From: an uncultured Spirochaetales bacterium
Lineage (GTDB): Bacteria > Myxococcota_A > UBA9160 > SMWR01
DNA: 64,000 bases
NCBI GenBank assembly: GCA_964494795.1
Contig: CAZBSV010000005.1
Coordinates: forward strand, 12,842 to 76,841
Reading direction: 5' to 3'
Shown: positions 12,683 to 62,509 of the stretch, in pieces
Numbering within the stretch: position 1 is the first letter of the stretch
Layout of the letters: each line of letters begins with the position of its first letter
Program-made: the position numbers and the translations under genes
The notes under the pieces: generated by a model
Databases searched by the model: none
What the model was told of the DNA's origin: nothing
Seen by the model: the letters and a program-made list of their open reading frames with translations, nothing else

Positions 12683-12885
12683 CGCATCGATCCCGCTCGG
12701 CCTCGCGCGAGCGATCGAATCGATCGCGGTCGATTCTGGCGACGGGGACCCCGGTTTGCCTATTTTCGGCGTCCGCGATCGGCTCGCCGCTGGCGCTTCG
12801 ATTCGCTCGTTTTCGTTTCGCTGTCTCGCTGCCTCGCCGTCTCATCGGATTGCTGGATCGCCGTCTTGCCAAATTGGAGGTTTGG

Positions 12886-22118: not shown

Positions 22119-23801
22119 TTGCATTTTCCAGGACTCGCGAAAGGATCCTCGATGGCTGCCGAAGCGACTCTCTCCGACGCCCGATCGCTGCTCGACGCGG
22201 CAGAGAAACTTCTCGACCAGACCGTCGAGCGCGCGAGCGCGGTTACACAGGGCGGCGAGCGAATCGACGATCACCAGGTGCTGGCCGAACGCGTCGCATA
22301 CGCGGTGACAGAGGGGCGGGCCGCGCGCGCAGCGCTGGATTTTGCGGCAGCGCTTCGCGAGGAGGGAAGATCCTCCGCGATCCTCGAGACGACGTTCGCG
22401 GCCGCGGTGGCGCATCTCGTCGAAAGCCTGCGCGTTCGCCTCGCCCCCGCCGTCGACGATCTTGGAATCGGCGAGGAGGCGTTCGAGGTAGCGTTCCCCG
22501 CGGACGTCCGCGCGCTGCTGCGGCGCGTCGGACACGAGTCGGTGTTCAGAGCAATTGGTCGCCACGTCATCGACACGCGTGGGCGAAACGATGTTCCGCT
22601 CGACGAGATGTCAGAACAGGTCCGCGAATCGGTGCGCGAGTTCGCGGGTGCGGAGATCGCGCCGAAGGCCGAGCACATCCACCGCAGCGATGCTCTGGTT
22701 CCCGAGGAGTTCATCACCAAGATGAGCGAACTCGGTTATTTCGGGATGGGCATCCCCGAGCGTTACGGCGGCTCCGAGATGGGCAATCTTGCGATGATCC
22801 TCACGACGGAAGAGCTATCGAGGGTTTCGCTGGCCGGCGCGGGGTCGCTCATCACCCGACCCGAGATTCTCACCAAGGCGCTGCTCGGGGGCGGCACCGC
22901 AGCGCAGAAACAGCATTGGCTGCCGAGGATCGCGTCCGGCGAAATCATGGTCGCGATCGCCGTCACCGAACCGGATGTCGGCAGCGACGTCGCCGCCGTC
23001 AAGTGCAAGGCCGAGCCGCGCAGGCTCGAAGGCCGCGACCAATGGGTCATCAGCGGCCCGAAGTCGTGGTGCACGTTCGCAGGTCGGGCCGACGTGCTCG
23101 CATTGTTGGCGCGAACCGATCCGGATGTTTCGAAGGGTGCGCGCGGCCTTTCGCTGTTCATCGTCCCGAAAGACGCTTTCACGGGACACGAATTCGAAAT
23201 GACGCAGTCGGGTGGAGGTCGATTGGTCGGAAAGGCAGACGCCACGCCGGGCTATCGCGGGATGCATTCTTTCACGCTGAATTTCGACAACTATGCGGTG
23301 CCGTTGGATCATCTCGTCGGCGGTGACGCAAATCTCGGACGAGGCTTCTATCTCCAGATGGCGGGTTTTGCGGCGGGCCGGCTCCAAACCGGTGGCCGCG
23401 CCTGTGGACTCGCGCAGGGGGCGCTCGAAAAAACCGCCGAGTACGTGGTGGATCGAACTCAATTTGCCAAGCCGCTTTCGGAATTTCAACTCACCCAGTA
23501 CGCGCTGGGGCGGATGGCAGCTCGGCTGACCGGCGCCCGTGCGATCACCTACGCGGCTGCGATCGCGATGGACGAAGACGAGCGCGCAGCGTCTACACTC
23601 GCCGCGCAGGCGAAACTCCTCAGCTGCGACGTGGCGGTCGAACTCACCCAGCAGGGTCAGTTGCTGCACGGAGGATGGGGTTATGCGGAGGAGTATCCGA
23701 TCAGCCGCTACGTGGTCGACGCCCAGGTGCTACCGATCTTCGAAGGTGTCAAGCCGATCCTCGAGCTCAAGGTGATTGCGCGCAGCTTGCTCGCGGGGTG
23801 A
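22119..23801 (+). CDS. acyl-CoA dehydrogenase, long form (start uncertain)
   Basis: ACAD middle and C-terminal domains: AVTEPDVGSDVAAVKC, WCTFAG, and QLLHGGWGYAEEYPISRYVVDAQVLPIFEG. Confidence 0.85.
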   Translation: MHFPGLAKGSSMAAEATLSDARSLLDAAEKLLDQTVERASAVTQGGERIDDHQVLAERVAYAVTEGRAARAALDFAAALREEGRSSAILETTFAAAVAHLVESLRVRLAPAVDDLGIGEEAFEVAFPADVRALLRRVGHESVFRAIGRHVIDTRGRNDVPLDEMSEQVRESVREFAGAEIAPKAEHIHRSDALVPEEFITKMSELGYFGMGIPERYGGSEMGNLAMILTTEELSRVSLAGAGSLITRPEILTKALLGGGTAAQKQHWLPRIASGEIMVAIAVTEPDVGSDVAAVKCKAEPRRLEGRDQWVISGPKSWCTFAGRADVLALLARTDPDVSKGARGLSLFIVPKDAFTGHEFEMTQSGGGRLVGKADATPGYRGMHSFTLNFDNYAVPLDHLVGGDANLGRGFYLQMAGFAAGRLQTGGRACGLAQGALEKTAEYVVDRTQFAKPLSEFQLTQYALGRMAARLTGARAITYAAAIAMDEDERAASTLAAQAKLLSCDVAVELTQQGQLLHGGWGYAEEYPISRYVVDAQVLPIFEGVKPILELKVIARSLLAG

Positions 23802-25723: not shown

Positions 25724-25818
25724 AACACGCTACAGGGCGGCTCCCCCTGGGGGAGACGCTTCATTGGAGCGACGCAGCCGAATTCCGGACTCCATTTCGG
25801 CTTTTGCCTTGACAAGAA

Positions 25819-25833
25819 ATGACTTGAAGTCAT
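25819..25833. promoter_or_regulatory. perfect 15-bp palindrome ATGACTTGAAGTCAT next to a TTGACA hexamer; candidate operator
   Basis: TTGACA at 25809-25814. The palindrome (7-1-7) is at 25819-25833, in the divergent region between the aminopeptidase gene and the first gene of the FAS-like operon. Confidence 0.3.
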
Positions 25834-26008: not shown

Positions 26009-26956
26009 ATGAATCAGGACTTCAACCGCGACCAATGGGCGATCGTGCTCGGAGGCTCGAGCGGTTTCGGGCTCGCGACTGCCCAGAAGCTCGCCGAGCA
26101 CGGCATGAGCCTGTGCGTCGTACATCGCGATCGGCGCGGCGCCATGTCGCGCATCGAGCCCGAATTCGAGAAGATTCGCGGCACGGGCGCGGCGCTGCTC
26201 AGCTTCAACACGGACGCGCTCGATCCCGCCAAACGCGACGAGATCCTGACGGAATTGAAGCGCGCGATGGGTACGGACGGCCGAGTGCGGGTTCTGCTTC
26301 ACTCGATCGCGTTCGGTAATCTCAAGCTGATCGCACCCGAGAAGCTGGCAGCTTCGACTACGGCGCGCGACCTCGCGGAACGGCTCGGAGTTGCGGAGGA
26401 AAGCCTGAAGGCAGCGGCGGACCAACTGTTCGAGGCGGGCGCCGACGGCCTCCACACGCTGGCCGCGCGACCGACCTATCCGGATCGCTCCTACATCGAC
26501 GACGAGGATCTCGGGCGAACGATCTACAGTATGGGAACGAGCCTGCTCGGGTGGTCCCAGGTCGTGCTGGAGCGCGGCCTGTTTGCGGATGACGCGCGCA
26601 TCTTCGGTCTCACCAGCGAGGGAAACGAAGTTGCCTGGAAGGGTTACGCGGCCGTGGCGGCCGCCAAGGTGGCGATGGAGTCGATCACGCGTTCGATGGC
26701 GGTGGAACTCGCTCCGTATGGAATCCGATCCAATGTGATTCAAGCCGGTGTGACCGATACTGCCGCGCTGCAGGCGATCCCCGGCAGCCTCCAGCTCAAG
26801 GCCCAGGCCCGCCAGCGCAATCCCTTCGGGCGCCTGACGACGCCCGCTGATGTTGCCAACGTGATTTATCTGCTGTCCACGCCAGAAGCGTCCTGGATCA
26901 ATGGCGAAGTGATTCGAGTGGACGGCGGCGAGCACATCTCGGGAGTGCTGAAGTGA
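26009..26956 (+). CDS. enoyl-ACP reductase-like SDR (FabI/FabL-type signatures)
   Basis: GGSSGFGLA nucleotide loop. HSIAFG replaces the classical NNAG. Y-x6-K (YAAVAAAK) replaces YxxxK. There appears to be an extra segment between them. Confidence 0.7.
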   Translation: MNQDFNRDQWAIVLGGSSGFGLATAQKLAEHGMSLCVVHRDRRGAMSRIEPEFEKIRGTGAALLSFNTDALDPAKRDEILTELKRAMGTDGRVRVLLHSIAFGNLKLIAPEKLAASTTARDLAERLGVAEESLKAAADQLFEAGADGLHTLAARPTYPDRSYIDDEDLGRTIYSMGTSLLGWSQVVLERGLFADDARIFGLTSEGNEVAWKGYAAVAAAKVAMESITRSMAVELAPYGIRSNVIQAGVTDTAALQAIPGSLQLKAQARQRNPFGRLTTPADVANVIYLLSTPEASWINGEVIRVDGGEHISGVLK

Positions 26957-27948
26957 CGGTCTATCTCCACAGCGTCGGGCATTTTCATCCCGAGAACGAG
27001 ATTTCGAATCAATTCCTCGAAGATCTCGACATCGGAACGAACGATCAGTGGATCATCGACCGCGTCGGCATCCGCTCACGGCGCACCGTGCTACCGCTCG
27101 ACTACATCCGCGAGACCCGGAATGCCGAACCGCGGGCCGCGATGGAAGCGGCTCTCTACAGCAACGCAGAGATCGGGAGACGGGCGGCAGAACTCGCGAT
27201 TGCGAGGGCTGGTATCGAGAAGAGCGACGTCGGCATGCTGATTGGCGGGACTTCGCTGATGGACACGACGTCACCCGCCGAGTCCTGCAACATCGCCCGC
27301 GCGCTGGAACTCGAAGTGCCCTCCTTCGACATCAATTCGGCCTGCACCAGCTTCTACGTGCAGCTCTATCTGCTTTCGAAGATGCAACCCGACCTGCTTC
27401 CCGACTACATCGTTCTCGTCGTTGCGGACTGCCTCACGAAGGCGGTCGACTATTCCGATCGCTCGGCCGCCGTGTTGTGGGGCGACGGTGCTGCTGCCGC
27501 CGTGGTTTCGACGAGGCATCCGGCGCGGGCTCGGATCGAGGGGAACACCATTGCGTCGAGCCCGGCGGGAAACGACAAGGTTGTCGTTCCGCGCCTCGGC
27601 TTCTTTCATCAGGAGGGGCGAACCGTCCAGACCTTCGGCATCAAGCGGATGACACGCCTGCTCAGCAGCTTGCGCGAGCAATTCGAGGAGCCCGACCGAA
27701 GATTCAACTTCGTCGGCCATCAGGCGAATCACCGCATGCTCGAGTCGGTCTGCAAGCACTGCGACATCCCCGCCGATCGCCACTTCAGCAATGTCGAATG
27801 GTTCGGGAATACCGCGAGCGCGAGTTCCGCGTCGGTCGTGTCGATGGAGTGGGAGAAGTGGCGCGACGGTGACGATGTGGCCGTCGTAGGCGTGGGCTCC
27901 GGTTTGACCTGGTCGAGCTACCTGATCCGATTCGGAGATCTTCTGTGA
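26953..27948 (+). CDS. 3-oxoacyl-ACP synthase III (FabH-like)
   Basis: GTG start overlaps the upstream stop (GTGA). Cys in INSACTSF, His in VGHQAN, Asn in FGNTASAS. Confidence 0.85.
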   Translation: MTVYLHSVGHFHPENEISNQFLEDLDIGTNDQWIIDRVGIRSRRTVLPLDYIRETRNAEPRAAMEAALYSNAEIGRRAAELAIARAGIEKSDVGMLIGGTSLMDTTSPAESCNIARALELEVPSFDINSACTSFYVQLYLLSKMQPDLLPDYIVLVVADCLTKAVDYSDRSAAVLWGDGAAAAVVSTRHPARARIEGNTIASSPAGNDKVVVPRLGFFHQEGRTVQTFGIKRMTRLLSSLREQFEEPDRRFNFVGHQANHRMLESVCKHCDIPADRHFSNVEWFGNTASASSASVVSMEWEKWRDGDDVAVVGVGSGLTWSSYLIRFGDLL

Positions 27949-28535
27949 CCTACGAGGAGTTCCGAGATCGCAAGAGTTTTTCGAAGCAAGAGATGCTCGC
28001 ATTCGCCCACGCAAATCTCTTCACTGACGCGCCTCCCGAGTTCAACGTACAACTTCCGGCACCGCCGATGTTGATGGTCGATCGGATTCTCGAAATCCGA
28101 AGCGACGGCCCCCGGGGCCGAATCGTCGCCGAGCGCGACGTGGCGATCGACGATTGGTTTTTCCAGTGTCATTTTCGCGGCGACCCCGTTCAGCCCGGCT
28201 GCCTCGGTGTCGACGGTGTCTGGCAACTGCTGGGATTCTTTTGCGCGTGGCGCGGCGGGCTTGGATCCGGCCGAGCACTGGGCTGCGGTGAGATCGAATT
28301 CTCGGGCCAGATCCGGCCGCACGACCGCTGCGTGCGCTACGAGATCGACGTTCGCCGTTTCACCAAGATTGCCCACGCCGGAGCCACACTGGTGATCGGT
28401 GATGCAACGCTGTTCGTCGACGACGAACCGATCTACGAGATCAAGCGAGCCAAGGTCGGCACCTTCCGAGACATCGCGTACTCCGATTATCCGATGGCCT
28501 CTGAGCGTTCTCGCGGCGGAAAGATGCAGCGATGA
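27945..28535 (+). CDS. fabA: 3-hydroxyacyl-ACP dehydratase / trans-2-decenoyl-ACP isomerase
   Basis: FFQCHFRGDPVQPGCLGVDGVWQLLGFF...GRALGCGEIEFSGQI closely parallels the E. coli FabA active-site region. Confidence 0.88.
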   Translation: MTYEEFRDRKSFSKQEMLAFAHANLFTDAPPEFNVQLPAPPMLMVDRILEIRSDGPRGRIVAERDVAIDDWFFQCHFRGDPVQPGCLGVDGVWQLLGFFCAWRGGLGSGRALGCGEIEFSGQIRPHDRCVRYEIDVRRFTKIAHAGATLVIGDATLFVDDEPIYEIKRAKVGTFRDIAYSDYPMASERSRGGKMQR

Positions 28536-28990
28536 GCGGAACTCGACTGACACCCAAGGAAGTCCTGGCGCTGATCCCGCAGCGGGAACCCTTTCGCTTC
28601 ATCGACGACATCCTCGAGCTCGACGATGATCACATCGTTGGCACCTATCGGTTTCGTCCCGATGCGGATTTCTATCGCGGTCACTTTCCCGGGAATCCGG
28701 TCACACCCGGAGTCATTCTGATCGAGTCGCTCGCACAGGTAGGCATCGTCGCGCTGGGCATCTATCTGCTCGCCCAGGAGAGTGAAGCCGATACCGCGAA
28801 GATGATGACCCTATTCACCGACACGAATGTCGAATTCGCCGGGATCGTGAACCCGGGCGACCGCGTGACCATCACCGCGGAGAAGGTGTTCTTTCGCCGG
28901 CGAAAATTGCGTTCGAGGGCCGAGATGAAGCTCGATGATGGAACGCTCGTTTGTTCGGGAACTGTTTCTGGAATGGGAATCTTCAAATGA
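28532..28990 (+). CDS. FabZ-like hotdog-fold 3-hydroxyacyl-ACP dehydratase
   Basis: IPQREPFRFIDDI...FYRGHFPGNPVTPGVILIESLAQ. Confidence 0.8.
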   Translation: MSGTRLTPKEVLALIPQREPFRFIDDILELDDDHIVGTYRFRPDADFYRGHFPGNPVTPGVILIESLAQVGIVALGIYLLAQESEADTAKMMTLFTDTNVEFAGIVNPGDRVTITAEKVFFRRRKLRSRAEMKLDDGTLVCSGTVSGMGIFK

Positions 28991-30264
28991 GTGCGCGGGT
29001 GGTGGTGACGGGGATCGGTGTGCTGGCACCGAATGGCAACAACGTCCGAGACTTCGAGCTCGCGCTCCGCAAGGGGCTCTCGGGTATTCGCGTTCAAGAG
29101 AAGATGGTCGAGAGCGGCTTCGGATCGCATGTCGCGGGTATTCCCGAGGGCATCGATGAACTCGCGGAGTCGTACTTTTCCGAGGATCTCCTGCTCGCGA
29201 TGAACTCTGGGCACCGATGCGCGGCGATTGCGGGAGTGGACGCCTGGACGGATGCCGGATTCGAGCGACCGGATTCCGCTGACGATCGCGTCGACTGGGA
29301 CACCGGAGCGGTGCTGGGCACTGGGATCGGCGGCATGGATACGATCGCCAATTCGGTCGTTCCGATGACGAACGCAAAGAACGTTCGTCGACTCGGAAGC
29401 GTCGCCGTCGAACAGGTGATGTCGAGCGGGGTCTCGGCGCGTCTATCTGGCATCCTTGCATTGGGCAATCAGGTCACCACGAATTCCAGCGCGTGCAGCA
29501 CCGGCAGTGAAGCGATCTCGATGGGCGTCGAACGGATCCGCCGCGGACTCGCCAAGCGGATGTTGTGCGGAGGCGCCGAGGGCGCGAGCCATTACACCTG
29601 GGCCGGCTTCGACGCGATGCGGGTGCTCTGCCGCCGTTTCAACGCTGCACCGGAGCGTGCATCGAGACCCATGAGCGCGACGGCGGCGGGCTTCGTCCCG
29701 AGCGCGGGCGCGGGCGTGCTCATGCTGGAGAGTCTCGAGAGTGCGCGGGAACGCGGAGCGCGAATCCTCGCCGAAGTGGCCGGCTCAGCGCTCAACTGCG
29801 GTGGCCACCGAGGAGGTGGCAGCATGACGGCGCCGAATCCCGACGGGGTGAGGCGCTGCATTCAGGCTGCACTCGCCGACGCGCGGGTTGCTCCCGAAGA
29901 AGTGGGCGCGATCAATGGGCATCTGACGGCGACGAGCGCGGACCCGAAGGAGGTTCATTCCTGGGCGGCCGCTCTCGGCTGCAGACCTGACGATCTGCCC
30001 CCGATCACATCGACCAAGTCGATGATTGGTCACGCCCTTGGCGCGGCTGGCGGAATCGAGGCGGTTGCTTGCGTGTTGATGCTCACTGGAGGATTCATAC
30101 ATCCTTCGATCAATTGCGAGGATGTGCACCCCGACATCGAGCCGTACGCGGCGTCGATTCCGCACACCGCCCTTCAGGCCCCGGACCTTCGAGTCGTGGT
30201 GAAGGCGGGTTTCGGTTTTGGGGATGTCAACGCATGTCTGGTGTTTCGAAAGTGGAACGAATAA
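28987..30264 (+). CDS. 3-oxoacyl-ACP synthase I/II (FabB/FabF type)
   Basis: ATG at 28987 (ATGA overlap) gives MSARVVVTGIGVLAPNG. Cys in SSACSTGSEAI, His in NGHLTATSA and KSMIGHALGAAG. Confidence 0.9.
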   Translation: MSARVVVTGIGVLAPNGNNVRDFELALRKGLSGIRVQEKMVESGFGSHVAGIPEGIDELAESYFSEDLLLAMNSGHRCAAIAGVDAWTDAGFERPDSADDRVDWDTGAVLGTGIGGMDTIANSVVPMTNAKNVRRLGSVAVEQVMSSGVSARLSGILALGNQVTTNSSACSTGSEAISMGVERIRRGLAKRMLCGGAEGASHYTWAGFDAMRVLCRRFNAAPERASRPMSATAAGFVPSAGAGVLMLESLESARERGARILAEVAGSALNCGGHRGGGSMTAPNPDGVRRCIQAALADARVAPEEVGAINGHLTATSADPKEVHSWAAALGCRPDDLPPITSTKSMIGHALGAAGGIEAVACVLMLTGGFIHPSINCEDVHPDIEPYAASIPHTALQAPDLRVVVKAGFGFGDVNACLVFRKWNE

Positions 30265-30359
30265 CTCCTCTCCGGGGTATCATGCTGTTCACCAGCTAGT
30301 TAGCCCGAGAGCATTCCGCGCCTGCGGGCGTTGCAAAGACACAAGAAAGGAGCCCTTCC

Positions 30360-30608
30360 GTGGATCAAACCGAGATCTTTGAGAAAGTCGTCAAGATTCT
30401 AACCCCCTATGTGAAGAACCAGGAGGCGCTCAAGGGCGTCTCGTTGAAGACCCATATCCTCGATGACCTGAAAGTGAACTCTGCCCGGCTGGTAGACGTC
30501 GTGCTCGAGTTCGAGGATGCGTTCGACATCGAGATCGATGACGACGACGTCGACAAGGTCGAGACCGTCGGAAATGCGGTCGAGTTGATCGAGGCGAAAA
30601 TCGGATAG
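30360..30608 (+). CDS. acyl carrier protein, atypical serine context
   Basis: AAGGAG at 30347-30352 precedes the GTG start. 82 aa and acidic. The phosphopantetheine site reads DLKVNSARLVD (NSA instead of DSL). Confidence 0.8.
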   Translation: MDQTEIFEKVVKILTPYVKNQEALKGVSLKTHILDDLKVNSARLVDVVLEFEDAFDIEIDDDDVDKVETVGNAVELIEAKIG

Positions 30609-31372
30609 TGGCGCTTCGGCCCATCGCCCCACTGTCGGCGGCTGTGCGCCGAAAGTTGGCGCTACAGCGCGAGATTTCGCGACTGCTGTCGCCCCTGACG
30701 ATTCCGCTGGTTGGGATCGCGCTGTGCGGTGTGCTGCGTTACCGCATCGAGAACCTCCGCGGCCTTCGACGCGAGTATCGCCGGATCTGCCTCGAGCGGG
30801 ACGGGCCGCTGATGATCTGCGCGAATCATCTCACGATGATCGACTCGCTCGTAATCGCGTGGGCGTTGGGATCTCCATGGTGGTATTTCCGACACTTCAG
30901 AACGCTGCCCTGGAACGTTCCGGAGCGGTCGATTTTTGCGGTGACGCGATTCGCGCGAATGGCGATCTACGCATTCAAGTGCGTTCCCGTGGAGCGCGGT
31001 GGCGATCGATCGGAAGTCACGCAAGTGCTGGCTCGCCTGGCGTATGCGGTCTCCAACTGCGAAGTGGCTCTGATCTTTCCCGAGGCGGGGCGGAGCCGAA
31101 CCGGACGTGTGGATCCGGATTTGGCGGCTTCGGGAGTCGGGCGGGTCTATCGAAGCGTTGCGGGTTGCAGGGTGCTCTGTGTGTATCTGAGAGGCGATCA
31201 CCAGGATGGTTATTCGGATCTGCCTGTGCGGGGCGAGCGTTTTCGCGGATCCGTTTCGGTCATCGAGCCCAAGACGAGCTGCCGAGGCCTCCGCGCTTCG
31301 CGGGACATTTCGCGGCAGATCGCGCAACGGCTCGCCGAGATGGAGCAGGAGTACGTTGATGCTCGGAAATGA
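30608..31372 (+). CDS. PlsC-family (lysophospholipid/glycerolipid) acyltransferase
   Basis: N-terminal TM. HX4D motif CANHLTMIDS. Motif III is IFPEAGRSRTG. Confidence 0.75.
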   Translation: MALRPIAPLSAAVRRKLALQREISRLLSPLTIPLVGIALCGVLRYRIENLRGLRREYRRICLERDGPLMICANHLTMIDSLVIAWALGSPWWYFRHFRTLPWNVPERSIFAVTRFARMAIYAFKCVPVERGGDRSEVTQVLARLAYAVSNCEVALIFPEAGRSRTGRVDPDLAASGVGRVYRSVAGCRVLCVYLRGDHQDGYSDLPVRGERFRGSVSVIEPKTSCRGLRASRDISRQIAQRLAEMEQEYVDARK

Positions 31373-31973
31373 CATCGTCGATCTCCGCGATCCTGAATCG
31401 TCGCTCGTGGCGTGCCACGCGCGTTTCGATCGGCGCGTGTTTTGCCCTGGGGAATTCGAAGCAATCTCGAGCGGCCACACGGACGTGCAGCGGCGCTGGA
31501 TCCTGTGGTCGGCAAAAGAGGCCGCCTTCAAGGCTGTGCGTCGGGAACACCCAGGGGCCGCGTTTTCTCCCGCGCGCTTCGTCGTCGATCTCGATCGCTC
31601 GCTCTGCGGATCGGTCCGATACGGAATTCACCGCTTGCCGGTGCGGATCCGGATCGACGGGGACTGCGTGCACGCGGTCGTGAGCGAAAATCAAGCTCAC
31701 ACCGGATTGTTTTGGGGCGCGCGTCGGCTGACGACGGCCGAACTTCGCGACTCGAGTCAAGCAGTTCGCCGGTTTGCGATCGCGTCGATTGCAGCCGAAC
31801 TGCGCCTTGCGATTTCGGATCTGCGGATCGAGAAGGCCCGCCGGATTCCCGAGTTGATCGTCTCCGGCGAGCGCGCACCCGTGGCGCTTTCGCTGTCACA
31901 CCATGGCTCGTACGCGGGTTTCGCGTGCCGCGATCCGCGCATCGACCAAGCCCGCCCGAGCGTTCTCCATTGA
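31359..31973 (+). CDS. 4'-phosphopantetheinyl transferase superfamily protein
   Basis: Internal ATG at 31359 gives MLGNDIVDL. WSAKEAAFKA motif. ~204 aa. Confidence 0.7.
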   Translation: MLGNDIVDLRDPESSLVACHARFDRRVFCPGEFEAISSGHTDVQRRWILWSAKEAAFKAVRREHPGAAFSPARFVVDLDRSLCGSVRYGIHRLPVRIRIDGDCVHAVVSENQAHTGLFWGARRLTTAELRDSSQAVRRFAIASIAAELRLAISDLRIEKARRIPELIVSGERAPVALSLSHHGSYAGFACRDPRIDQARPSVLH

Positions 31974-34900
31974 GTCTCGCTACCGCCATTCGCCGGCTCG
32001 CCATCCTCAATCGCGGGGAGGCGGCGATGCGCTGCATTCGCTCCGTCAAGGCGCTCAAGGCGCTCGAGGGTTCGGATCTCGAATCGATCGCGATCTACAC
32101 TGACGTCGATCGCGACGCGCCCTTCGTCCGCCACGCGGACCACGCCATTCGACTCGAGGCGCCCAACGGAGCGGTTGCCGCCTACCTCGACCACGATCGC
32201 TTGATCGATCTTCTCGTGCGCGCCGGTGCGGACGCCGTCTGGCCCGGCTGGGGGTTCGTCGCGGAAGACCCCATTTTCGTGGATCGAGTCAGCGCGCTGG
32301 GGATTCGATTCCTGGGGCCATCCGGGGATGTGATGCGCGCTCTCGGCGACAAGATCGACGCCAAGCGAATTGCCGAAGATGCGGGAATTCCGGTCGTGGC
32401 GTGGAGCGGTGGCGCTCTCGCAGACGAGAATGCCGCCGCGCGCTGCGCGGCGGAACTCGGCTACCCGGTGGCCGTCAAGGCCGCTGCGGGGGGTGGTGGT
32501 CGCGGTATCCGGATGGTGGAGTCGGAGTCCGAGCTCGCGGCCGCGTTCCGTTCGGCGGCCGCGGAGGCGAAGGCGGCTTTCGGCAGCGATCGCCTGTTCA
32601 TCGAACGCAAGCTTTCGCGCGGTCGGCACATCGAGGTCCAAATCGCCGCCGATGCGAAGGGTTCTGCAATGTCACTCGGATGTCGCGACTGTTCGGTGCA
32701 GCGTCGGCACCAGAAATTGATCGAGGAAGCTCCGCCTCCGAGACTCTCGCAGAAACTTCGCGATGAACTCGAGCAAGCCGCTGTTCGTCTGGTCGAATAC
32801 GTCGGGTACGTGGGCGTGGGAACCGTGGAATTCCTCGTCGTCGACCAGGCGTATTCGTTTCTCGAAGTGAATCCGCGTCTGCAGGTCGAGCATGGGATTA
32901 CCGAGGAGTTGACGGGAATCGATCTGGTGCAACTCCAGATTCGCATCGCGAGGGGAGAACCGCTGCCGGAGCTCCGAGATTCCGGAGGCTGGGTTGCGAT
33001 CGAAGCCCGCGTATGTGCAGAAGACCCCCAGGCGGACTTTCTTCCGACACCCGGCCGGATCGCGCTATTCGATCCCGCACTCGGGCTGCGACTGAGGGTC
33101 GACTCCGGAGTTTCCGCCGGATGCCGCGTGCCTGCGGAGTTCGATTCGCTGATCGCGAAGATCATCGCCACGGGTGAGACGCGTGAAGAGGCGCGCGCTC
33201 GACTCGTCTGTGCGCTCACGGATTTCGAGCTCGTGGTCGCGGGAGGGGCGAGCAACAAGGGTTATCTGATCGATATCCTCGAGACTCCTGAATACCGCAG
33301 GGGCGAGTTCGACACCCAGTGGTTGGATCGCACGCCCGAGCTTCGGTTGGGCTCCGACGCTCACGCCGTCGAGGCCCTGGTCGCCGCGTCAATCCTCGCC
33401 TACCAGCGCTCGCGCGACGCGGCGCGGCAGAAATTCTATGCGGACCCGGCGACGCTTTCGCCGACGTCGATCCCGCCTTCGACCGGCCAGCGGATCGATC
33501 TCACAGCCGGCGCGGAGAGTTACCGCCTCGAGGTTTTCGCGGTGGGCGCCTGGCGCTACCGGGTCCACCTCGACGGTCGCGTTGCCGTCGCGACGCTCAG
33601 CGATGAGCGCGAGAACTCCGCGATCCTCGAACTGGGCGGTCGAAACCTCCGCGTATTGCACGATGTGTCGGAGCGCGGCCTGCGGATCGAGATCGAGGCG
33701 CATCCCTACCGCTTCACGAGTGAACTCGCCGGCCAGGTTCGCTCGGGCACTCCCGCCGTCGTGATCGCTCTGCAGGTGGCGGTCGGAAACCCGGTGAAGG
33801 CGGGCCAATCTCTCGGCCTGCTCGAGGCGATGAAGAGCGAAATCGACTTCCGCGCTCCCATCAGTGGCGTCGTCAAAGAAATCTGTGTGCGAAGCGGGCA
33901 GCAGGTGAGCGCGGGAGAGCTGCTCTTGATCATCGAAGCCGAGACGCGTGAGGCATTCGAATCGCCGCTTCAAAAGCGTCTGATGCTGACACCCGAAGTG
34001 GATTCGCTGGATCTCTTCTTCTCCGACGAAGTTGGAGGTGAGATCGTCGTGCAGAATCTGAAAGTCGTCGAGCGAGCGGATGCGGCCGCTCGACGCGCTG
34101 CGATCGATGCTGCGCGAGGCGAGATTCGGCGCATCCTGATGGGTTATGACGTGAATCCCGCACGAGGCATGCGCCTCGTCGCGTTGCTCGAGTGCCCGCT
34201 ACCCGAGGGCCTCTCGGCTGGATTTTGCAGCGAGCTCGCCGAGATCCGTCACGAGTTGTCGATCTTCTCGGATGTCGAACAGCTCTTCGTGCGGGCTCCG
34301 CACGCGTCCGAGACCGGTGTGGTTGGCCCGTCGAATCACGCGCGCTTGCGGGCCTACATGCGAAGGATGGCTACCGAGGGTTCCGGGATGCCGGAAGCTT
34401 TCCTGGCGATCCTGCGTCGCGCGCTCGTCCACTATGGAATCAACGATCTCAAGGCTTGCGACAGTCTCGAGCGCGCAGTCCTGCGCATCGTGGCCAGCCA
34501 GTTGTCACCCGATCTGCGGCGGCGTCTCGTCTTGGAGATCCTGAAAAGAATTCACGCTCTCGCAGAATCAGGTGTTTCGCTCGGAGGCGACGAACGGCTC
34601 CGCGATTCCCTGTCTTGCATTTCGAGTCTGCGCGGTCTGGTGCCCGACGCGCTGGCCGATCGCGCGATCGAAGCCAGCTATACGATCTTCGAAGGTCCCG
34701 CCTTGGAGCGCCAAGCGGAGCAGACCACCCAGGAGGTGGAAAGCTGGCTCGCCGACGCCGAATTCGTGCCCAGCCAACCTCCCAGAGCGGTGTTGGTTCA
34801 TCTTGCCAACGCACCCCAGAACGTTTTTGATCGCGTCGGTCGTTGGCTGGCGGATTCGAATCCACTGCGCCGTTCGGTCGCCGTGGCGGCACATATCAGC

Positions 34901-37558
34901 CGTTTCTACGCGCCCAATAAACCTCCGACGCACACGACCACGGTCATCGGGTCGACCTACGTTGAACGGCTCCACCGGGAGGACGGTCGAACGCTGCTCG
35001 GGAGCGTTACCAAGCCCGACCAGATGCTCCAGACGCTCGAGCGGCTCGCCCAAGCATCGCGTGAATTCGGTTCCGAAAAGCGAATCGATGCGATCGAATT
35101 GCTGGTTCCCGTCGGAGATCGCCGAGATCTCGAAGGCCTGCGCGACGAGATCGCATCCGCGCTCTCCGAGCGCTTGCATGCTGACCGCCTCAGCCTGACT
35201 GCACTCGTCGAAAACGACCGACCCGAGCACTTCAGTTTCGTGCAGACCGCTCGAGGTTGGGAGGTGATGAAAGAACTTTACGGTCTGCATCCAGAGACAG
35301 CCGGGCGCGTCGATCTCCACCGACTGAGAGCATTCGACTGCGAGCGCTTGGATTCTCCAGACGACATCTATTGCTTCCACCTGCGGTCGCGAGAAATTTC
35401 CGGTGACGAGCGGATCTTCGTACTCGCCGACTTTCGAGGTCGCTCTCCCGAGCACGGCCACGAGGCTACGCTGCATCTCGCATCGTTCGAGCGCGTGTTC
35501 TTCGACGCCGCGCGTACGTTGCGAAGCCACCTCGGCTTGCGGGATCCGAGTCGAAGACTGCAGTGGAACCGCATCGCGGTCTTCACTTCGCCGGCGATCT
35601 TCCTCGACGACCAGGTTGCCGCGCGCTTCGCGCGGCGCCTGGCGCCCGCCACGCGACATCTCGGCCTCGAGAAGGTGATCGCGCGGCTGAACGTACTCGA
35701 TCGCGCTCACCCGGAGAAGCGCGCCAGGCCGTTCGAGGTCGTGATCGCCGACCCAACCGGGAGCAACATGGAGCTCTCGTGGCGCGAACCGCATCTGGAT
35801 CCCCTGGAGCCGGCCCGGGATTACGAGCGAAAGGTCGTCGAGGCGCGCCGCCGCCGGCTCGTCTATCCCTATGAGATCATCCGTCTGCTGACCGGCGGAT
35901 CGTCGAACAACGGCGTCGCGAACCCGGAAGCCGCACCGGACTTGCCGCCCGGAAAATTCGAGGAGTTCGACCTGGCGCGCGACGCAGCCGCACCGACGGC
36001 GGCAAGCGTCGCGGGTCGCCCCTACGGGATGAATGCGAGTTCCGTCGTCTTCGGCGTGATCGAGACGCCGACGGAAAAAGTCCCGGAAGGCATGAAGCGT
36101 GTACTCGTTCTGTCGGACCCGACGATTGGAATGGGCGCGTTGGCGGCGCCGGAGTGCGATCGGATCATCGCGGCAATCGACCTCGCGGAGAGCATGAAGC
36201 TTCCGCTCGAATGGTTGCCGGTGTCGAGCGGCGCGCGGATCGCGATGGACAGCGGCACGGAAAATCTCGACGCGACGGCGAGAGTGGTGAGGCGCATCAT
36301 CACTTTCACGCAGTCGGCGGGTGTCATCCACATCATCGTCCAGGGCGTCAACGTCGGTGCGCAGAGCTATTTCGACGCGTTGGCGACGATGCTCCAGCAC
36401 ACTCGCGGCGTGCTGATCATGACCGCGTCGGCTTCGATGCTGCTCACGGGTCGGGCCGCTCTCGAAGCGGCGGGTGCGGTGTCGGCCGAAGACGACACCG
36501 CGATCGGCGGCTTCGAGCGGATCATGGGACCCAATGGTGAGGCCCAGTTCTACGCGCGCAATCTCGTGGACGCCTACCGGATCCTCTACGACCACTACCG
36601 CTTCACGTTCGTTCCGCCCGGCGAGGGCGCGCCCCGGCTGTTTGCGACCAGCGACCCGGAGACGCGCACGATCACCGAGTATCCCTGCGAGCCGGAAGAG
36701 GGACACGACTTCCGCAAGCTCGGCGAGATCTTCGATCGGGATTCGAATCTCGACCGCAAGCGCCCGTTTTCGATGCGCGCGCTGATGGCCGGCGTGATCG
36801 ATCAAGACGGCGGCCAGCTGGAGCGCTGGCGCGCCTGGCAGGGCGCGGAGATGGCGATCATCTGGGATGCGCATCTCGGCGGCTTTCCGGTCAGTCTGAT
36901 CGGCATCGAAAGCCGCAGCCTGGCGCGGGAAGGCTACAGCCCGACCGACGGCCCATCCGTGTGGAGCGGCGGCACCCTGTTTCCGCTCTCGTCGAAGAAG
37001 CTCGCGCGCGCGCTCAACGCGGCGAGCGGGAATCGACCGGTGGTTCTGCTCGCCAATCTATCGGGATTCGACGGGTCGCCCGAGTCGATGCGGAAATTGC
37101 AGCTCGAGCACGGCGCAGAAATCGCCCGGGCCGTGGTCAATTTCGCAGGCGCGATCGTCTTCCTCGTGGTGTCGCGATACCACGGCGGCGCTTACGTGGT
37201 CTTCTCGGGCAGCTTGAACGAGGGCCTGCGCGCCGCTGCGCTCACGGGTTCTTTCGCGTCGGTGATCGGTGGAGCGCCGGCGGCTGCGGTCGTATTCACC
37301 CGAGAAGTGCGAGCGCGCGCGGCGAAAGATCCGCGGATCGCAAAACTCCGACGGGAAACCGGAGCGAGCGGCCGCGACCGACTCGAAATTGCCTGGAAGG
37401 AAGTCCTGCTCGAGAAACAGGCCGAACTGGCGTCCGAATTCGATTCGATCCACAGCGTGGAGCGAGCTCTCGAAGTCGGCTCTCTCGAAGCGATCGTCGA
37501 CCCCGAGAACATGCGCAGTTACCTGATCGGAGAACTTCGAAAAGCAGCGGCGCGATGA
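31970..37558 (+). CDS. single-chain multidomain acyl-CoA carboxylase (biotin carboxylase - BCCP - carboxyltransferase), LCC-like
   Basis: In-frame TTG at 31970 (TTGA overlap with the PPTase stop). The first 186 codons of the track ORF look non-coding or shadow. BC: ILNRGEAAMRCIRS, KAAAGGGGRGIRMV, EVNPRLQVEHGITE. BCCP: LGLLEAMKSEIDF. CT: LSDPTIGMGALAAPE, LLANLSGFDGSPESM, SRYHGGAYVVFS. Confidence 0.85.
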   Translation: MSLATAIRRLAILNRGEAAMRCIRSVKALKALEGSDLESIAIYTDVDRDAPFVRHADHAIRLEAPNGAVAAYLDHDRLIDLLVRAGADAVWPGWGFVAEDPIFVDRVSALGIRFLGPSGDVMRALGDKIDAKRIAEDAGIPVVAWSGGALADENAAARCAAELGYPVAVKAAAGGGGRGIRMVESESELAAAFRSAAAEAKAAFGSDRLFIERKLSRGRHIEVQIAADAKGSAMSLGCRDCSVQRRHQKLIEEAPPPRLSQKLRDELEQAAVRLVEYVGYVGVGTVEFLVVDQAYSFLEVNPRLQVEHGITEELTGIDLVQLQIRIARGEPLPELRDSGGWVAIEARVCAEDPQADFLPTPGRIALFDPALGLRLRVDSGVSAGCRVPAEFDSLIAKIIATGETREEARARLVCALTDFELVVAGGASNKGYLIDILETPEYRRGEFDTQWLDRTPELRLGSDAHAVEALVAASILAYQRSRDAARQKFYADPATLSPTSIPPSTGQRIDLTAGAESYRLEVFAVGAWRYRVHLDGRVAVATLSDERENSAILELGGRNLRVLHDVSERGLRIEIEAHPYRFTSELAGQVRSGTPAVVIALQVAVGNPVKAGQSLGLLEAMKSEIDFRAPISGVVKEICVRSGQQVSAGELLLIIEAETREAFESPLQKRLMLTPEVDSLDLFFSDEVGGEIVVQNLKVVERADAAARRAAIDAARGEIRRILMGYDVNPARGMRLVALLECPLPEGLSAGFCSELAEIRHELSIFSDVEQLFVRAPHASETGVVGPSNHARLRAYMRRMATEGSGMPEAFLAILRRALVHYGINDLKACDSLERAVLRIVASQLSPDLRRRLVLEILKRIHALAESGVSLGGDERLRDSLSCISSLRGLVPDALADRAIEASYTIFEGPALERQAEQTTQEVESWLADAEFVPSQPPRAVLVHLANAPQNVFDRVGRWLADSNPLRRSVAVAAHISRFYAPNKPPTHTTTVIGSTYVERLHREDGRTLLGSVTKPDQMLQTLERLAQASREFGSEKRIDAIELLVPVGDRRDLEGLRDEIASALSERLHADRLSLTALVENDRPEHFSFVQTARGWEVMKELYGLHPETAGRVDLHRLRAFDCERLDSPDDIYCFHLRSREISGDERIFVLADFRGRSPEHGHEATLHLASFERVFFDAARTLRSHLGLRDPSRRLQWNRIAVFTSPAIFLDDQVAARFARRLAPATRHLGLEKVIARLNVLDRAHPEKRARPFEVVIADPTGSNMELSWREPHLDPLEPARDYERKVVEARRRRLVYPYEIIRLLTGGSSNNGVANPEAAPDLPPGKFEEFDLARDAAAPTAASVAGRPYGMNASSVVFGVIETPTEKVPEGMKRVLVLSDPTIGMGALAAPECDRIIAAIDLAESMKLPLEWLPVSSGARIAMDSGTENLDATARVVRRIITFTQSAGVIHIIVQGVNVGAQSYFDALATMLQHTRGVLIMTASASMLLTGRAALEAAGAVSAEDDTAIGGFERIMGPNGEAQFYARNLVDAYRILYDHYRFTFVPPGEGAPRLFATSDPETRTITEYPCEPEEGHDFRKLGEIFDRDSNLDRKRPFSMRALMAGVIDQDGGQLERWRAWQGAEMAIIWDAHLGGFPVSLIGIESRSLAREGYSPTDGPSVWSGGTLFPLSSKKLARALNAASGNRPVVLLANLSGFDGSPESMRKLQLEHGAEIARAVVNFAGAIVFLVVSRYHGGAYVVFSGSLNEGLRAAALTGSFASVIGGAPAAAVVFTREVRARAAKDPRIAKLRRETGASGRDRLEIAWKEVLLEKQAELASEFDSIHSVERALEVGSLEAIVDPENMRSYLIGELRKAAAR

Positions 37559-38256
37559 ACACGAGAGAGATCATCAGCGACCCGCGAAGGCCGTCCAGCA
37601 GCGGGCGAGAGGAAAAGAAGGCCGAAGTACGCCGCCGGATCCTCGAGGCCGCAAAGGAGATCTTCTTTCGGGACGGATTCATGGGCGCGAACCTCGACGA
37701 GATCGCAGAACTCGCGGGTGTCGCCAAGGGGACGCTCTACCGCTACTTCGACAACAAGGCGCAGATCTACCTCGCGGTTCTCTCGCGCAAAGCCCAGAGA
37801 TTCGAGAAGAAACTGCACGCCGCGCTCGACCCGAAGGCCACGCCGGCCGAGGCACTCGTTCGAGTGAGTCGTTTCTACTTTCAGCATTACGTCGAAAATC
37901 CGGACTATTTCCAGATCTTCTGGGCGATCGAGAACCAGGCCGTGATCGGCGACCTGCCGCCCGAACTCGTGGAAGAGGTGGTCCGACTCTGGGAAGAGGG
38001 CCTCGGGCTGTTGGCCGGGATCGTCGAAAGGGGCATTGCCGAGGGTGTGTTCGCCCCGTGTGACGCGTGGGAGGTTGCGAGCATCCTTTGGACGCTCGCG
38101 AATGCGATCATTCGAACCGAGCGCTCCTCCGCGCATCGGAGCCTGCGACGCAGCGCTCTGGATACGTTCTTCGACGATGCGATCGCGCTGGTGCTACGCG
38201 GCCTCGCCACGCCCGCGACTTGCGAGTCGCAAATGACGAACGCCCCGCGGGTTTGA
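37555..38256 (+). CDS. TetR family transcriptional regulator
   Basis: ATG at 37555 (ATGA overlap). The HTH is ILEAAKEIFFRDGFMGANLDEIAELAGVAKGTLYRYF. Confidence 0.88.
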   Translation: MNTREIISDPRRPSSSGREEKKAEVRRRILEAAKEIFFRDGFMGANLDEIAELAGVAKGTLYRYFDNKAQIYLAVLSRKAQRFEKKLHAALDPKATPAEALVRVSRFYFQHYVENPDYFQIFWAIENQAVIGDLPPELVEEVVRLWEEGLGLLAGIVERGIAEGVFAPCDAWEVASILWTLANAIIRTERSSAHRSLRRSALDTFFDDAIALVLRGLATPATCESQMTNAPRV

Positions 38257-38304: not shown

Positions 38305-38922
38305 TCAGCGCTTCGGGCGCATCCTGCGCCCAACCCCATACAGGCCACCCAGTCCCATACCGAGCAGGGAAAGCGTACTCGGCTCGGGCACGACCGCGAA
38401 GGCGCTGTTGAACGTGGTCGTTGGGGTGATGACATTGTAGAAACCATCCAATATGTCGTCCGTAGGAGCGAAGTCGCCCGAGGTGATCTGAAAGGATCCC
38501 GCGGTCGCGGTGTCGAGATGGAACACGACGGTCCCCAGCAAATAGCTCTGTCCGGCCAACAGACCGTCCGGACCAGGCGGAGCAAACACCGTAGCGTTGA
38601 TGTTTCTGATTTGGGTTCCGGTATCCGTGGTAGCTCCGAGTCCGAGCGGCAGAGGGCCTCCCTGGAAGCTCTGGAAGCTGACGACCGAAAAATCCGCAAC
38701 CAGCGCCGTGTAGTCGATACTCATACCGCCGCCCGCCGAACCATTCGCACCTGCTGTGAGGATCACGTTCAGCGTGATGTTGCTCGACGCAAGGGCAATG
38801 CTCGTGGTGTTTGTTCCAGAGGCCGCCCAGATCAAATCGATCGTTGCGCTCGCACTGGCCGCGCCGGCGAAGCCCGCCAGTGCGATGAGTCCACCAGCCA
38901 TACCGACCAAGAATTTCCGCAT
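38305..38922 (-). CDS. PEP-CTERM sorting-domain protein 1
   Basis: ATG at 38922 preceded by GAGGAGA. The signal peptide ends AGAASASA. The C-terminus is VPEPSTLSLLGMGLGGLYGVGRRMRPKR (PEP motif, TM, basic tail). Confidence 0.85.
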   Translation of the reverse strand: MRKFLVGMAGGLIALAGFAGAASASATIDLIWAASGTNTTSIALASSNITLNVILTAGANGSAGGGMSIDYTALVADFSVVSFQSFQGGPLPLGLGATTDTGTQIRNINATVFAPPGPDGLLAGQSYLLGTVVFHLDTATAGSFQITSGDFAPTDDILDGFYNVITPTTTFNSAFAVVPEPSTLSLLGMGLGGLYGVGRRMRPKR

Positions 38923-38997
38923 CTTCCTATCTCCTCGTTCCTCGTGTTCCACGACGTAAATCGTGCAAAGTGTTTCGAACCACACAGCGGTCTTCGA

Positions 38998-39904: not shown

Positions 39905-40528
39905 CTAGCTCCTGCGGCTGCGCCCTGCGAGCGCGACGCCACCCAGTGCCATCACGAGCAGGGAGATGGCTCCCGGCTCCGGGGCATTGATCAGGCTGGC
40001 GCTGTTCAGCGTAAGCGTCGCGTTCGATATGGTATCGCCAGCGAAGTTCAGAATGCCGTCATTAGGCCCCATGACCGGCCGGAACGTAAACGTGCCGTTT
40101 CCGAGCGCGCTCTTTCGGAACGTGATCGTTCCGAGCTGGGCGGTTCCGCCCGCGCCTTGTATGCCGGTGCCGACACCTAGGAAGCAGACGCAGACCGCGT
40201 TGAGGCCCACAATCTGCGATCCCGAGTCGGTCGGCAGTCCGAGAGTCGACGGGAACACATTTGATGGAATGTTCGGTGTGTTCGCGAATGAGACGACCGC
40301 CACCTTGCTCAGTGCGTTGCTGTAGTCGACGCTCACAACGCCGCCCGACGAGCCGCCCGCGCCCGTGGTGAGCCTCACGTTCAGGACGATTGTGCCCGAC
40401 AGCGGGACGTCTTGAATCGTGTTAGTGCCGTTGGCCCAAAGAAGGTCGATCGTGGCGCTCGCACTGGCTGCACCGGCAAACCCCACCAGTGCAACCAAGC
40501 CCACTGCTGCTGTAAAGAATTTCCGCAT
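39905..40528 (-). CDS. PEP-CTERM sorting-domain protein 2
   Basis: MRKFFTAAVGLVALVGFAGAASASATIDLLWA shares the N-terminal ATIDL(I/L)WA with protein 1. The C-terminus is APEPGAISLLVMALGGVALAGRSRRS. Confidence 0.85.
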   Translation of the reverse strand: MRKFFTAAVGLVALVGFAGAASASATIDLLWANGTNTIQDVPLSGTIVLNVRLTTGAGGSSGGVVSVDYSNALSKVAVVSFANTPNIPSNVFPSTLGLPTDSGSQIVGLNAVCVCFLGVGTGIQGAGGTAQLGTITFRKSALGNGTFTFRPVMGPNDGILNFAGDTISNATLTLNSASLINAPEPGAISLLVMALGGVALAGRSRRS

Positions 40529-48169: not shown

Positions 48170-48475
48170 TCAGAGATACGCAACAATCGCGCCAATCAGT
48201 CCTCCGAGCGTCAGCACCAGGTTCGCGAGCAGTGAGAATCCGAAGCCGAGGGCACGCTTCGGGGGATCGCGATAGTAGGCGCGGGCGAACAGCGCGCGAC
48301 CGAGGACGAAGACGAGCCCGAGGCCCGCGCCGATCGGCGCGCTCACGTAGTGGCCGAAGAGCAGCATCGCCGGAATGAAGACGATGAGCTGCTCGAGAGT
48401 GTTCTGCTGGGTGCGGAAGTAGCGCTCGAAGACCGGGATTCGCCGCCGCTCAGCGGCGCCGCGTAACCGGGCGGA
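48170..48475 (-). pseudogene. 5'-truncated MAPEG-family membrane protein remnant
   Basis: The ATG ORF 48170..48367 (65 aa) holds only the last two helices. The same frame upstream encodes the MAPEG loop motif (YFRTQQNTLEQLIVFIP). It hits an in-frame stop at 48476-48478 with no ATG/GTG/TTG in between, and it overlaps the tesB 3' end. Confidence 0.4.
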
Positions 48476-49343: not shown

Positions 49344-49438
49344 GGCCGCCCGCAGTGGGTCGCGAAACGCGTAGCACGCGCGCTCCGGCGCAGCGAACGA
49401 CGCGCGGATACACTCCGCGCGAAGCCAGGAGGTGCAGC

Positions 49439-62503: not shown

Positions 62504-62509
62504 TCTGAG

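Follow-up and report, generated by a model that had tools for sequence, protein, structure and literature searches.

We analysed a 64,000-nt stretch of DNA from an uncultured bacterium (contig CAZBSV010000005.1, positions 12,842 to 76,841; hereafter the window), in which ten forward-strand genes at 26009-38256 encode most parts of a type II fatty acid synthase (FAS). In order, they specify an enoyl-acyl carrier protein reductase (ER), β-ketoacyl synthase III (KAS III), FabA, a FabZ-like dehydratase, an elongating ketosynthase (KAS I/II), an acyl carrier protein (ACP), an acyltransferase (AT), a phosphopantetheinyl transferase (PPTase), a multidomain acetyl/acyl-CoA carboxylase (ACC) and a TetR-family regulator (Table 1). 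All ten open reading frames (ORFs) of the original prediction, which had been made from the letters of the window, are present, and its gene calls were right in a check with hidden Markov models, in which Pfam and NCBIfam assignments agree for the ten proteins. The junctions also read as it had described: GTGA at 26953-26956 and 27945-27948, ATGA at 28532-28535 and 28987-28990, TAGTG at 30606-30610, a 14-nt ATG...TGA overlap at 31359-31372, TTGA at 31970-31973 and ATGA at 37555-37558. A single intergenic gap, of 95 nt, precedes the ACP gene; it includes AAGGAG, a strong ribosome-binding site, 5′ of the GTG start codon. These junctions are consistent with translational coupling, and the region, ~12 kb in length, is a single operon. 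Rfam gave no match in the operon leader or the pre-ACP gap, and terminator-like matches were fewer than shuffling would lead one to expect.

Table 1. Genes and sites of the window. Positions count from the first nucleotide of the window; the ten operon genes come first.
Feature	Position	Strand	Length	Basis or remark
Enoyl-ACP reductase, FabL/FabI type	26009..26956	+	315 aa	Pfam adh_short_C2
KAS III (FabH-like)	26953..27948	+	331 aa	Pfam ACP_syn_III and ACP_syn_III_C
FabA, 3-hydroxyacyl-ACP dehydratase/isomerase	27945..28535	+	196 aa	NF003509, 210.6 bits (cut-off 124)
FabZ-like dehydratase	28532..28990	+	152 aa	Pfam FabA domain
Elongating ketosynthase, KAS I/II	28987..30264	+	425 aa	Pfam ketoacyl-synt N and C domains
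Dedicated ACP	30360..30608	+	82 aa	Pfam PP-binding
GPAT/PlsC-family acyltransferase (AT)	30608..31372	+	254 aa	Pfam Acyltransferase
AcpS-type PPTase with internal insertion	31359..31973	+	204 aa	Pfam ACPS, residues 2-87
Eukaryote-type multidomain ACC, BC-BT-BCCP-central-CT	31970..37558	+	1862 aa	Pfam, with a weak ACC_central match
TetR-family regulator	37555..38256	+	233 aa	Pfam TetR_N and TetR_C
Promoter-like TTGACA (25809-25814), then perfect palindrome ATGACTTGAAGTCAT (25819-25833)	25809..25833	+		Sequence reading
ECF-type sigma factor (6058-6783) and zf-HC2 anti-sigma factor (5237-6061)	5237-6783	-		Standard pair
ETF-ubiquinone oxidoreductase	12850-14583	+		
Acyl-CoA dehydrogenase	22119-23801	+		N-terminal extension of ~160 aa
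PEP-CTERM-tailed protein	38305-38985	-		
PEP-CTERM-tailed protein	39905-40528	-		
Exosortase (EpsH) fused to DUF3485	41436-42995	-	519 aa	
Family III CoA-transferase	45017-46198	-		
Acyl-CoA thioesterase II	48450-49616	-		
DEAD/DEAH helicase fused to DUF3516	51292-54900	-	1202 aa	
Generic short-chain dehydrogenase/reductase	~60900-61688	+		adh_short, 159 bits
Thrombospondin type 3 repeats with weak copper amine oxidase-like domain	62504-64000	+		Cut by the window end

Conservation was surveyed with an AT profile against a one-genome-per-species collection (185,579 species genomes), which gave 466 matching stretches. The best 80 of these, all from metagenome-assembled genomes (MAGs), were analysed with 10-kb flanks, and their gene order was mapped by tblastn. 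The loci are labelled Myxococcota/"Deltaproteobacteria", Binatia, Gemmatimonadota and Acidobacteria/Thermoanaerobaculia, with a few apparent mislabels. Protein identity to the closest MAGs (labelled Myxococcales or Myxococcota) is 73-93% throughout the operon, which makes an uncultured member of Myxococcota the probable source, and the window's clade shows stable synteny. Because the order ER, KAS III, FabA, FabZ, KAS, ACP, AT, PPTase, ACC recurs in most of the 80 loci, which come from other species, the arrangement does not reflect chance. Conservation of gene order in relatives was the test that the original prediction had set for itself, and the operon passes it strongly, being conserved in hundreds of bacterial species, most of them uncultured.

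Around this common order the cassette varies in a modular way. KAS, ACP and AT stand together in 73 of the 80 loci, ACC adjoins in 55, and the TetR gene occurs in eight. A FabG-like ketoreductase lies between FabA and FabZ in 22 loci, and FabD upstream of the reductase in three (L029, L057 and L078). The reductase is absent from at least seven loci despite full upstream coverage; FabA is absent from seven otherwise full clusters, five of which have FabG in that position. Short forms consist of KAS III-AT-ACC (five loci) or AT-ACC (two loci), and the fullest version, L078, encodes FabD, ER, KAS III, FabA, FabG, FabZ, KAS, ACP, AT, PPTase and ACC. Every locus labelled Gemmatimonadota or Acidobacteria is without ACC; in those labelled Gemmatimonadota the cluster ends at the PPTase gene, and the genes downstream of it are mutually unrelated. 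In a rough neighbour-joining tree of KAS and AT, the Gemmatimonadota- and Acidobacteria-labelled loci form one clade inside the Myxococcota/Deltaproteobacteria diversity, and this nesting suggests some inter-phylum transfer of the cassette, into lineages already having a synthase. Neighbours in the flanks are lineage-specific only (DinG-like helicase, thiamine pyrophosphate enzyme, aminotransferase). Flank clustering by longest ORF, a procedure that antisense ORFs contaminate in DNA of such high GC-content, gave no further conserved cluster genes.

DSL is the near-universal attachment motif of ACPs. The operon ACP reads LKVNSARL, with NSA at the attachment serine as first noticed in the original prediction, and among 73 family ACPs LKVNSARL is found in 65 and xVNSARL in 72. 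It falls under every NCBIfam ACP cut-off (44.1 against 70.45 bits for TIGR00517, and 55.9 against 66 for the best model) and is 34% identical to Escherichia coli AcpP. Neither the equivalog models nor the attachment motif places it with the housekeeping AcpP proteins, and the claim that it is unlike them stands. The PPTase has the motifs GNDIVD, KEAAFKA and LSLSHHG, located towards both ends of the protein, with the insertion between them. It is the fastest-evolving member of the operon, with 31-46% identity to more distant relatives, and of the 73 loci with the KAS-ACP-AT core, 57 have it alongside the ACP. Secondary carrier systems typically bring a PPTase of their own.

The chain-building enzymes are likewise distant from their housekeeping counterparts, with the exception of FabA. 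The closest solved structures to the reductase are Bacillus subtilis FabL (3OIC) and Thermus thermophilus FabI (1ULU). Its YAAVAAAK segment aligns with YTTVGVSK of FabL as a Y-x6-K motif; since this signature stands in place of YxxxK, we regard the first-gene product as an enoyl reductase and not as a ketoreductase. It carries an extra insertion of ~55-85 aa and scores below every NCBIfam cut-off. KAS III reaches 156.8 bits with the NCBIfam fabH model (cut-off 292), and Cys, His and Asn motifs can be recognised in it; the FabZ-like protein reaches 83.6 bits with TIGR01750 (fabZ, cut-off 155) and has the HFPGNPVTPGV...E motif. For KAS I/II, scores were 288 bits with fabF (cut-off 494) and 259 bits with the KAS I model, which is also below its cut-off, and FabB and FabF chains of the PDB match it nearly equally (193 to 178 bits). 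It is encoded by a single gene with an intact Cys-His-His triad, and like KAS III and the FabZ-like protein it has kept its catalytic residues. KAS III, KAS, FabZ and the reductase all lie far under the housekeeping equivalog cut-offs of NCBIfam. FabA had been called a true FabA, and rightly: it passes the NF003509 equivalog, while TIGR01749 gives 175 bits (cut-off 238), and a full-length alignment with a hand-entered E. coli FabA sequence gives 43% identity, with the CHF His and GVD Asp retained as catalytic residues.

The AT was originally described as PlsC-type, and its motifs and predicted fold uphold this. NHxxxxD (here NHLTMID) and FPEGGRSR are invariant in an alignment of 19 family sequences, and the AlphaFold model (pLDDT 80) has human GPAT1 (8e4y), Thermotoga maritima PlsC (5kym) and squash GPAT (1k30) as top Foldseek matches. 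By alignment and predicted structure, with HX4D, FPEG(G/T)R and a GPAT/PlsC fold, it belongs with the glycerol-3-phosphate and lysophosphatidic acid acyltransferases (GPAT and LPAAT/PlsC). It scores 16 bits with TIGR00530 (cut-off 103), and the AT-family profile found nothing meaningful among PDB sequences. A metagenomic protein collection holds 2217 AT homologues at E<=1e-5.

Another function has been considered for this protein. FabD is absent from 77 of the 80 clusters and AT is always present, although AT was the query of the search. AT might then be a non-homologous replacement of FabD that moves malonyl from CoA to ACP, which would turn ACP-AT-PPTase-ACC into a loading block and KAS III-AT-ACC into an initiation module. 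Gene positions agree with this idea, since the AT gene abuts the ACP gene, at most the PPTase gene lies between AT and ACC, and the short form KAS III-AT-ACC would, with AT as a malonyl transferase, comprise just the three functions needed for initiation. However, acyltransferase motifs I and III are invariant in the AT family, the predicted fold is that of GPAT/PlsC, and our own reading of the sequence finds what we take to be further GPAT/LPAAT motifs, including putative glycerol-phosphate-binding arginines. Moreover, the second half of the N-terminal helix of AT is hydrophobic, as for a membrane enzyme, and three clusters hold FabD and AT both. To our knowledge, thiol acceptors have no precedent in the GPAT/PlsC family. 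We therefore consider malonyl loading by AT improbable.

The carboxylase combines biotin carboxylase (BC), BT, biotin carboxyl carrier protein (BCCP), central and carboxyltransferase (CT) regions in one chain. Its N-terminal 655 residues (BC-BT-BCCP) resemble the alpha subunits of methylcrotonyl-CoA and propionyl-CoA carboxylases (MCC/PCC), and the best matches to its CT half are CT chains of eukaryotic ACC. Positions 139-987 of a profile built from 14 family members align colinearly with residues 183-1068 of human ACC1, through BCCP into the central region. Single chain, domain order and colinearity identify the protein as a eukaryote-type multidomain ACC. The giant carboxylase of the original prediction is not exotic in itself, and belongs to a large bacterial family of eukaryote-type ACCs. 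The wider family comprises 610 clusters at E<=1e-30 in an exhaustive search, with eukaryotic-length proteins lower in the list, and Holophaga and Ktedonobacteraceae are the sources of its named members. In public annotation the window carboxylase (P0121) has 1843 aa, because the NCBI and Logan starts lie 57 nt later (32027 instead of 31970). The TTG start at 31970 is supported, since the later start trims the beginning of the BC domain, which begins at residue 7, and seven close homologues are 1862 aa long.

Two relatives of the carboxylase were encountered outside the cassette. An uncultured Holophaga carries a lone 1874-aa ACC homologue on a 3.67-Mb contig (L082, 10001-15625), near a Radical_SAM and BATS gene for a putative biotin synthase (17310-18245 of the same locus). 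In EukProt, a 1995-aa protein attributed to the green alga Mesostigma viride (P0330) shows 43% identity to the window ACC over matched central-CT stretches, closer than typical eukaryotic-length matches (38-39%); it may be a genuinely eukaryotic relative or stem from contaminating bacteria.

The regulator contains TetR_N and TetR_C domains, and its best NCBIfam matches, weak and all short of the cut-offs, are to FadR and FasR, which are fatty-acid regulators. Among the 80 loci, the TetR gene is confined to the window's clade plus L014 and L061. A promoter-like TTGACA followed by a perfect palindrome (Table 1) lies ~190 nt 5′ of the first gene, outside the span of the original prediction. The pattern RTGAC-N5-GTCAY occurs once in the 64 kb; as one or more occurrences also turned up in 19 of 100 shuffled sequences, the match alone is weak. 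In an alignment, however, TGAC-N5-GTCA is invariant in nine TetR-bearing loci, eight of which keep the -35-like TTGAC, and across TetR-bearing loci the element is found ~140-210 nt 5′ of the first gene. From this conservation, and not from the single-site match, we read the palindrome as a probable TetR operator that overlaps a promoter. A consensus promoter scan found no sigma-70 site.

The original prediction had called the operon self-contained. It does encode its own ACP, PPTase, acyltransferase, ACC and TetR, but the term is overstated, since FabD and FabG, which the prediction itself had found missing from the operon, are needed from elsewhere. Pfam and tblastn searches detected no FabD homologue in the whole window. 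The sole FabG-like match in the window is an unlinked generic short-chain dehydrogenase/reductase, 23 kb downstream; it is the one candidate ketoreductase in the window, is 30% identical to the FabG-like enzyme found in related clusters, and has no link to the operon.

Taking these data together, we favour an accessory type II FAS with its own carrier protein, orthogonal to and working in parallel with a housekeeping synthase encoded elsewhere, and give this reading a probability of roughly 0.55. It follows from an ACP that is very unlike AcpP and usually has its own fast-evolving PPTase, from core enzymes that diverge from the housekeeping equivalogs, and from a distribution that is patchy and partly horizontal. 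Since the cluster can do without FabD, FabG and at times the reductase, these would be supplied in trans. A role in a specialised lipid and not in bulk synthesis, as the original prediction proposed, would hinge on a canonical fab/acc set elsewhere in the genome. According to this model, the AcpS-type PPTase would activate the dedicated ACP, which, with its unusual VNSARL site, is probably modified only poorly by the housekeeping AcpS. The multidomain carboxylase would supply malonyl-CoA locally, a FabD encoded elsewhere would load malonyl onto the ACP, KAS III would initiate chains and KAS I/II would elongate them. The keto group would be reduced by a FabG encoded elsewhere, FabZ and FabA would dehydrate, and the enoyl bond would be reduced by the FabL-type enzyme. 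FabA would probably divert part of the flux to cis-3 intermediates and hence to oxygen-independent unsaturated chains. The AT, with its GPAT/PlsC fold, would then move the finished acyl chain from ACP to a glycerol-phosphate-type membrane lipid acceptor. The TetR protein may bind the promoter-overlapping TGAC-N5-GTCA palindrome, with release probably by acyl-CoA or acyl-ACP. The data show the gene identities, the catalytic motifs, the protein fold, the conservation and modular variation of the cassette and the conserved operator-like site; the orthogonality, the supply of FabD and FabG from outside, an unsaturated product, the acceptor and the ligand of the regulator we infer.

The strongest competitor is a primary operon for fatty acids and phospholipids, with the ACC as the sole ACC of the cell, AT as PlsC and the PPTase as AcpS, similar to the single fab-acc cluster of streptococci and clostridia. 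Several observations weigh against an accessory synthase and towards this one. In the fullest variants every step from ACC to acyl transfer is encoded, and variants such as L078 would suffice as the sole synthase of a cell. The short forms KAS III-AT-ACC and AT-ACC resemble housekeeping genes that are merely placed together. The operon is embedded among core chromosomal genes with a synteny that is stable within the clade, and its GC-content is near that of its surroundings in a high-GC (~64%), chromosomal window. Tailoring or export genes, which might have hinted at an unusual product, are absent from the conserved neighbourhood. The Holophaga ACC homologue has neither acyltransferase nor FAS genes next to it; as this homologue stands alone, the linkage to FAS is specific to the subfamily of the window ACC. 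SACE_4237 of Saccharopolyspora erythraea, of the same architecture, is an essential, homodimeric housekeeping ACC (PMC6491548), and this role keeps the primary-synthase explanation alive. Acetyl-CoA carboxylase activity and a dimeric state may be expected for the window ACC by its likeness to SACE_4237. In addition, both the trans-2 to cis-3 isomerase role of FabA and the glycerol-phosphate-type lipid acceptor of AT are putative assignments by homology only, and the sequence covered consists of the 64-kb window and the flanked loci, with any coexistence of canonical fab and acc genes lying outside it.

On the other side, a primary synthase would have to rely on an ACP that lacks DSL, fails all AcpP models and shares 34% identity with E. 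coli AcpP, and this sole ACP would have to serve lipopolysaccharide and cofactor pathways too. Its core enzymes except FabA score well under the equivalog cut-offs, and the presence of FabD, FabG and the enoyl reductase varies between clusters. Moreover, 466 stretches among 185,579 species genomes make a patchy distribution, and the cassette tree follows phyla uncleanly. Searches by tblastn with hand-entered E. coli AcpP, AccA and PlsX sequences gave no match within the 80 loci or the window; these cover a small part of each genome, and the result has no bearing on the remainder. We regard the primary synthase as less likely than an accessory one, while still the most serious of the alternatives to it.

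Comparison with known systems helps to place the operon. E. coli type II FAS, with its FabA-FabB route, and the fabT cluster of Streptococcus pneumoniae share with it the families KAS III, KAS I/II, FabA, FabZ, SDR-type enoyl reductase (of the short-chain dehydrogenases/reductases), ACP and ACC, and the fabT cluster also has an in-operon transcription factor. In contrast to canonical type II FAS, the operon has VNSARL instead of DSL in its ACP, its own PPTase and PlsC-like AT, and one 1862-aa multidomain ACC in place of AccABCD, and its window version is without FabD and FabG. The FabA-FabB pair is usual in alpha- and gamma-proteobacteria, and the lineages of the cassette lie outside these. 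The rhizobial AcpXL cluster (acpXL-fabZXL-fabF2XL-fabF1XL-adhA2XL-lpxXL) resembles the cassette in having a second dedicated ACP, a dehydratase, ketosynthases, a reductase and an acyltransferase to one lipid, with use of housekeeping FabD, FabG and FabI. It differs by an LpxL-family acyltransferase with lipid A as target, and is without FabA, KAS III, PPTase and ACC. Myxobacterial Pfa-type polyunsaturated fatty acid (PUFA) synthases follow a similar logic as secondary sources of acyl chains, with FabA-like dehydratases, a dedicated PPTase and an AGPAT domain that places the product in phospholipid. However, they are type I megasynthases with tandem ACPs, whereas the operon encodes discrete type II proteins with KAS III and a FabL-type reductase. 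Secondary lipid clusters are treated in PMC3098273. SACE_4237, by its published description, shares with the window ACC a single chain of ~1800-1900 aa with BC, BCCP, ACC-central and eukaryote-related CT; it is described as actinobacterial (PMC6491548), whereas the window subfamily is found in Myxococcota- and Binatia-labelled MAGs and is linked to AT and type II FAS.

Aryl-polyene clusters come near to the operon in type II architecture, a dedicated ACP, two hot-dog dehydratases and an acyltransferase of the lysophospholipid acyltransferase (LPLAT) type. Together with the PPTase, and with weak precomputed ApeP-like and ApeI-like matches on the FabZ-like protein, these features might suggest a type II polyketide-like or aryl-polyene-like cluster that makes a pigment or a specialised non-membrane lipid. 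However, the operon includes an enoyl reductase and a true FabA, and the lone ketosynthase gene has a full Cys-His-His triad and no partner of the chain-length-factor (CLF) type. Aryl-polyene clusters differ further by aryl starter enzymes, a second CLF-like ketosynthase, an exporter, LolA-like and glycosyltransferase genes; the conserved neighbourhood of the cassette is without an adenylating or ammonia-lyase starter enzyme, LolA/MMPL exporter, glycosyltransferase, methyltransferase or thioesterase. A product of this kind is very improbable. The aryl-polyene, PUFA-synthase and ole readings were rejected on gene content.

Upstream, the operon is flanked by genes for FtsK, class II ribonucleotide reductase, ETF-ubiquinone oxidoreductase (ETF-QO), acyl-CoA dehydrogenase and M18 aminopeptidase, and downstream by PEP-CTERM proteins, exosortase, phosphoenolpyruvate carboxykinase (PEPCK) and glycine dehydrogenase. 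Two PEP-CTERM-tailed proteins and an exosortase fused to DUF3485 lie just downstream, in a stretch with a GC-content of 0.595-0.608, below that of its surroundings; these genes suggest that the producer is Gram-negative and sorts proteins by an exosortase. An acyl-CoA dehydrogenase with an N-terminal extension, an ETF-ubiquinone oxidoreductase, a family III CoA-transferase and an acyl-CoA thioesterase II lie within the same 64 kb, and none of these genes for fatty-acid degradation and acyl-CoA is kept beside the operon outside the closest clade. Thrombospondin type 3 repeats and a weak copper amine oxidase-like domain occur together in the large protein at the end of the window, an unusual pairing; this protein is probably secreted or surface-bound. 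The window also encodes a helicase fused to DUF3516 and a standard pair of ECF-type sigma and anti-sigma factors (Table 1). An exact-protein look-up of the operon returned an 8.6-kb Logan contig as the sole match, PLSDB plasmids gave no match to the acyltransferase, and annotation pipelines assign generic names only to the operon proteins.

No published description of the cassette was found in the literature searched. Each part is in a known family and the overall logic has precedents; this gene combination is the new element. If the accessory synthase is the right reading, the cassette would be a widespread case of bacteria with two FAS kept apart by the carrier protein, and FabA-type unsaturation would occur well outside the textbook proteobacteria. 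A wider form of this reading, to which we assign somewhat less than even odds, would see a horizontally spread, orthogonal lipid line, leading from the eukaryote-type ACC through a private ACP with its PPTase and a type II FAS with FabA to a dedicated glycerolipid acyltransferase, that provides uncultured sediment and sponge bacteria of several phyla with a second, separately regulated, oxygen-independent pool of unsaturated membrane acyl chains. A bolder version of it would make the PlsC-like AT a new kind of malonyl-CoA:ACP transacylase in place of FabD, the function that we consider improbable above. If the operon is instead a primary synthase, whole lineages would use an AcpP without the DSL motif, which would still be a useful correction.

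Eukaryote-type single-chain ACCs are common beyond Actinobacteria, under the labels Myxococcota, Binatia, Holophaga and Ktedonobacteraceae, and here they are wired to a type II FAS. The compact size of ~12 kb, with its own regulator and its own malonyl-CoA supply, makes the cassette attractive for heterologous expression and lipid engineering. Moreover, a eukaryote-type ACC that is linked to lipid genes in Myxococcota-labelled genomes would, if true, bear on proposals of a myxobacterial origin for eukaryotic lipid pathways.

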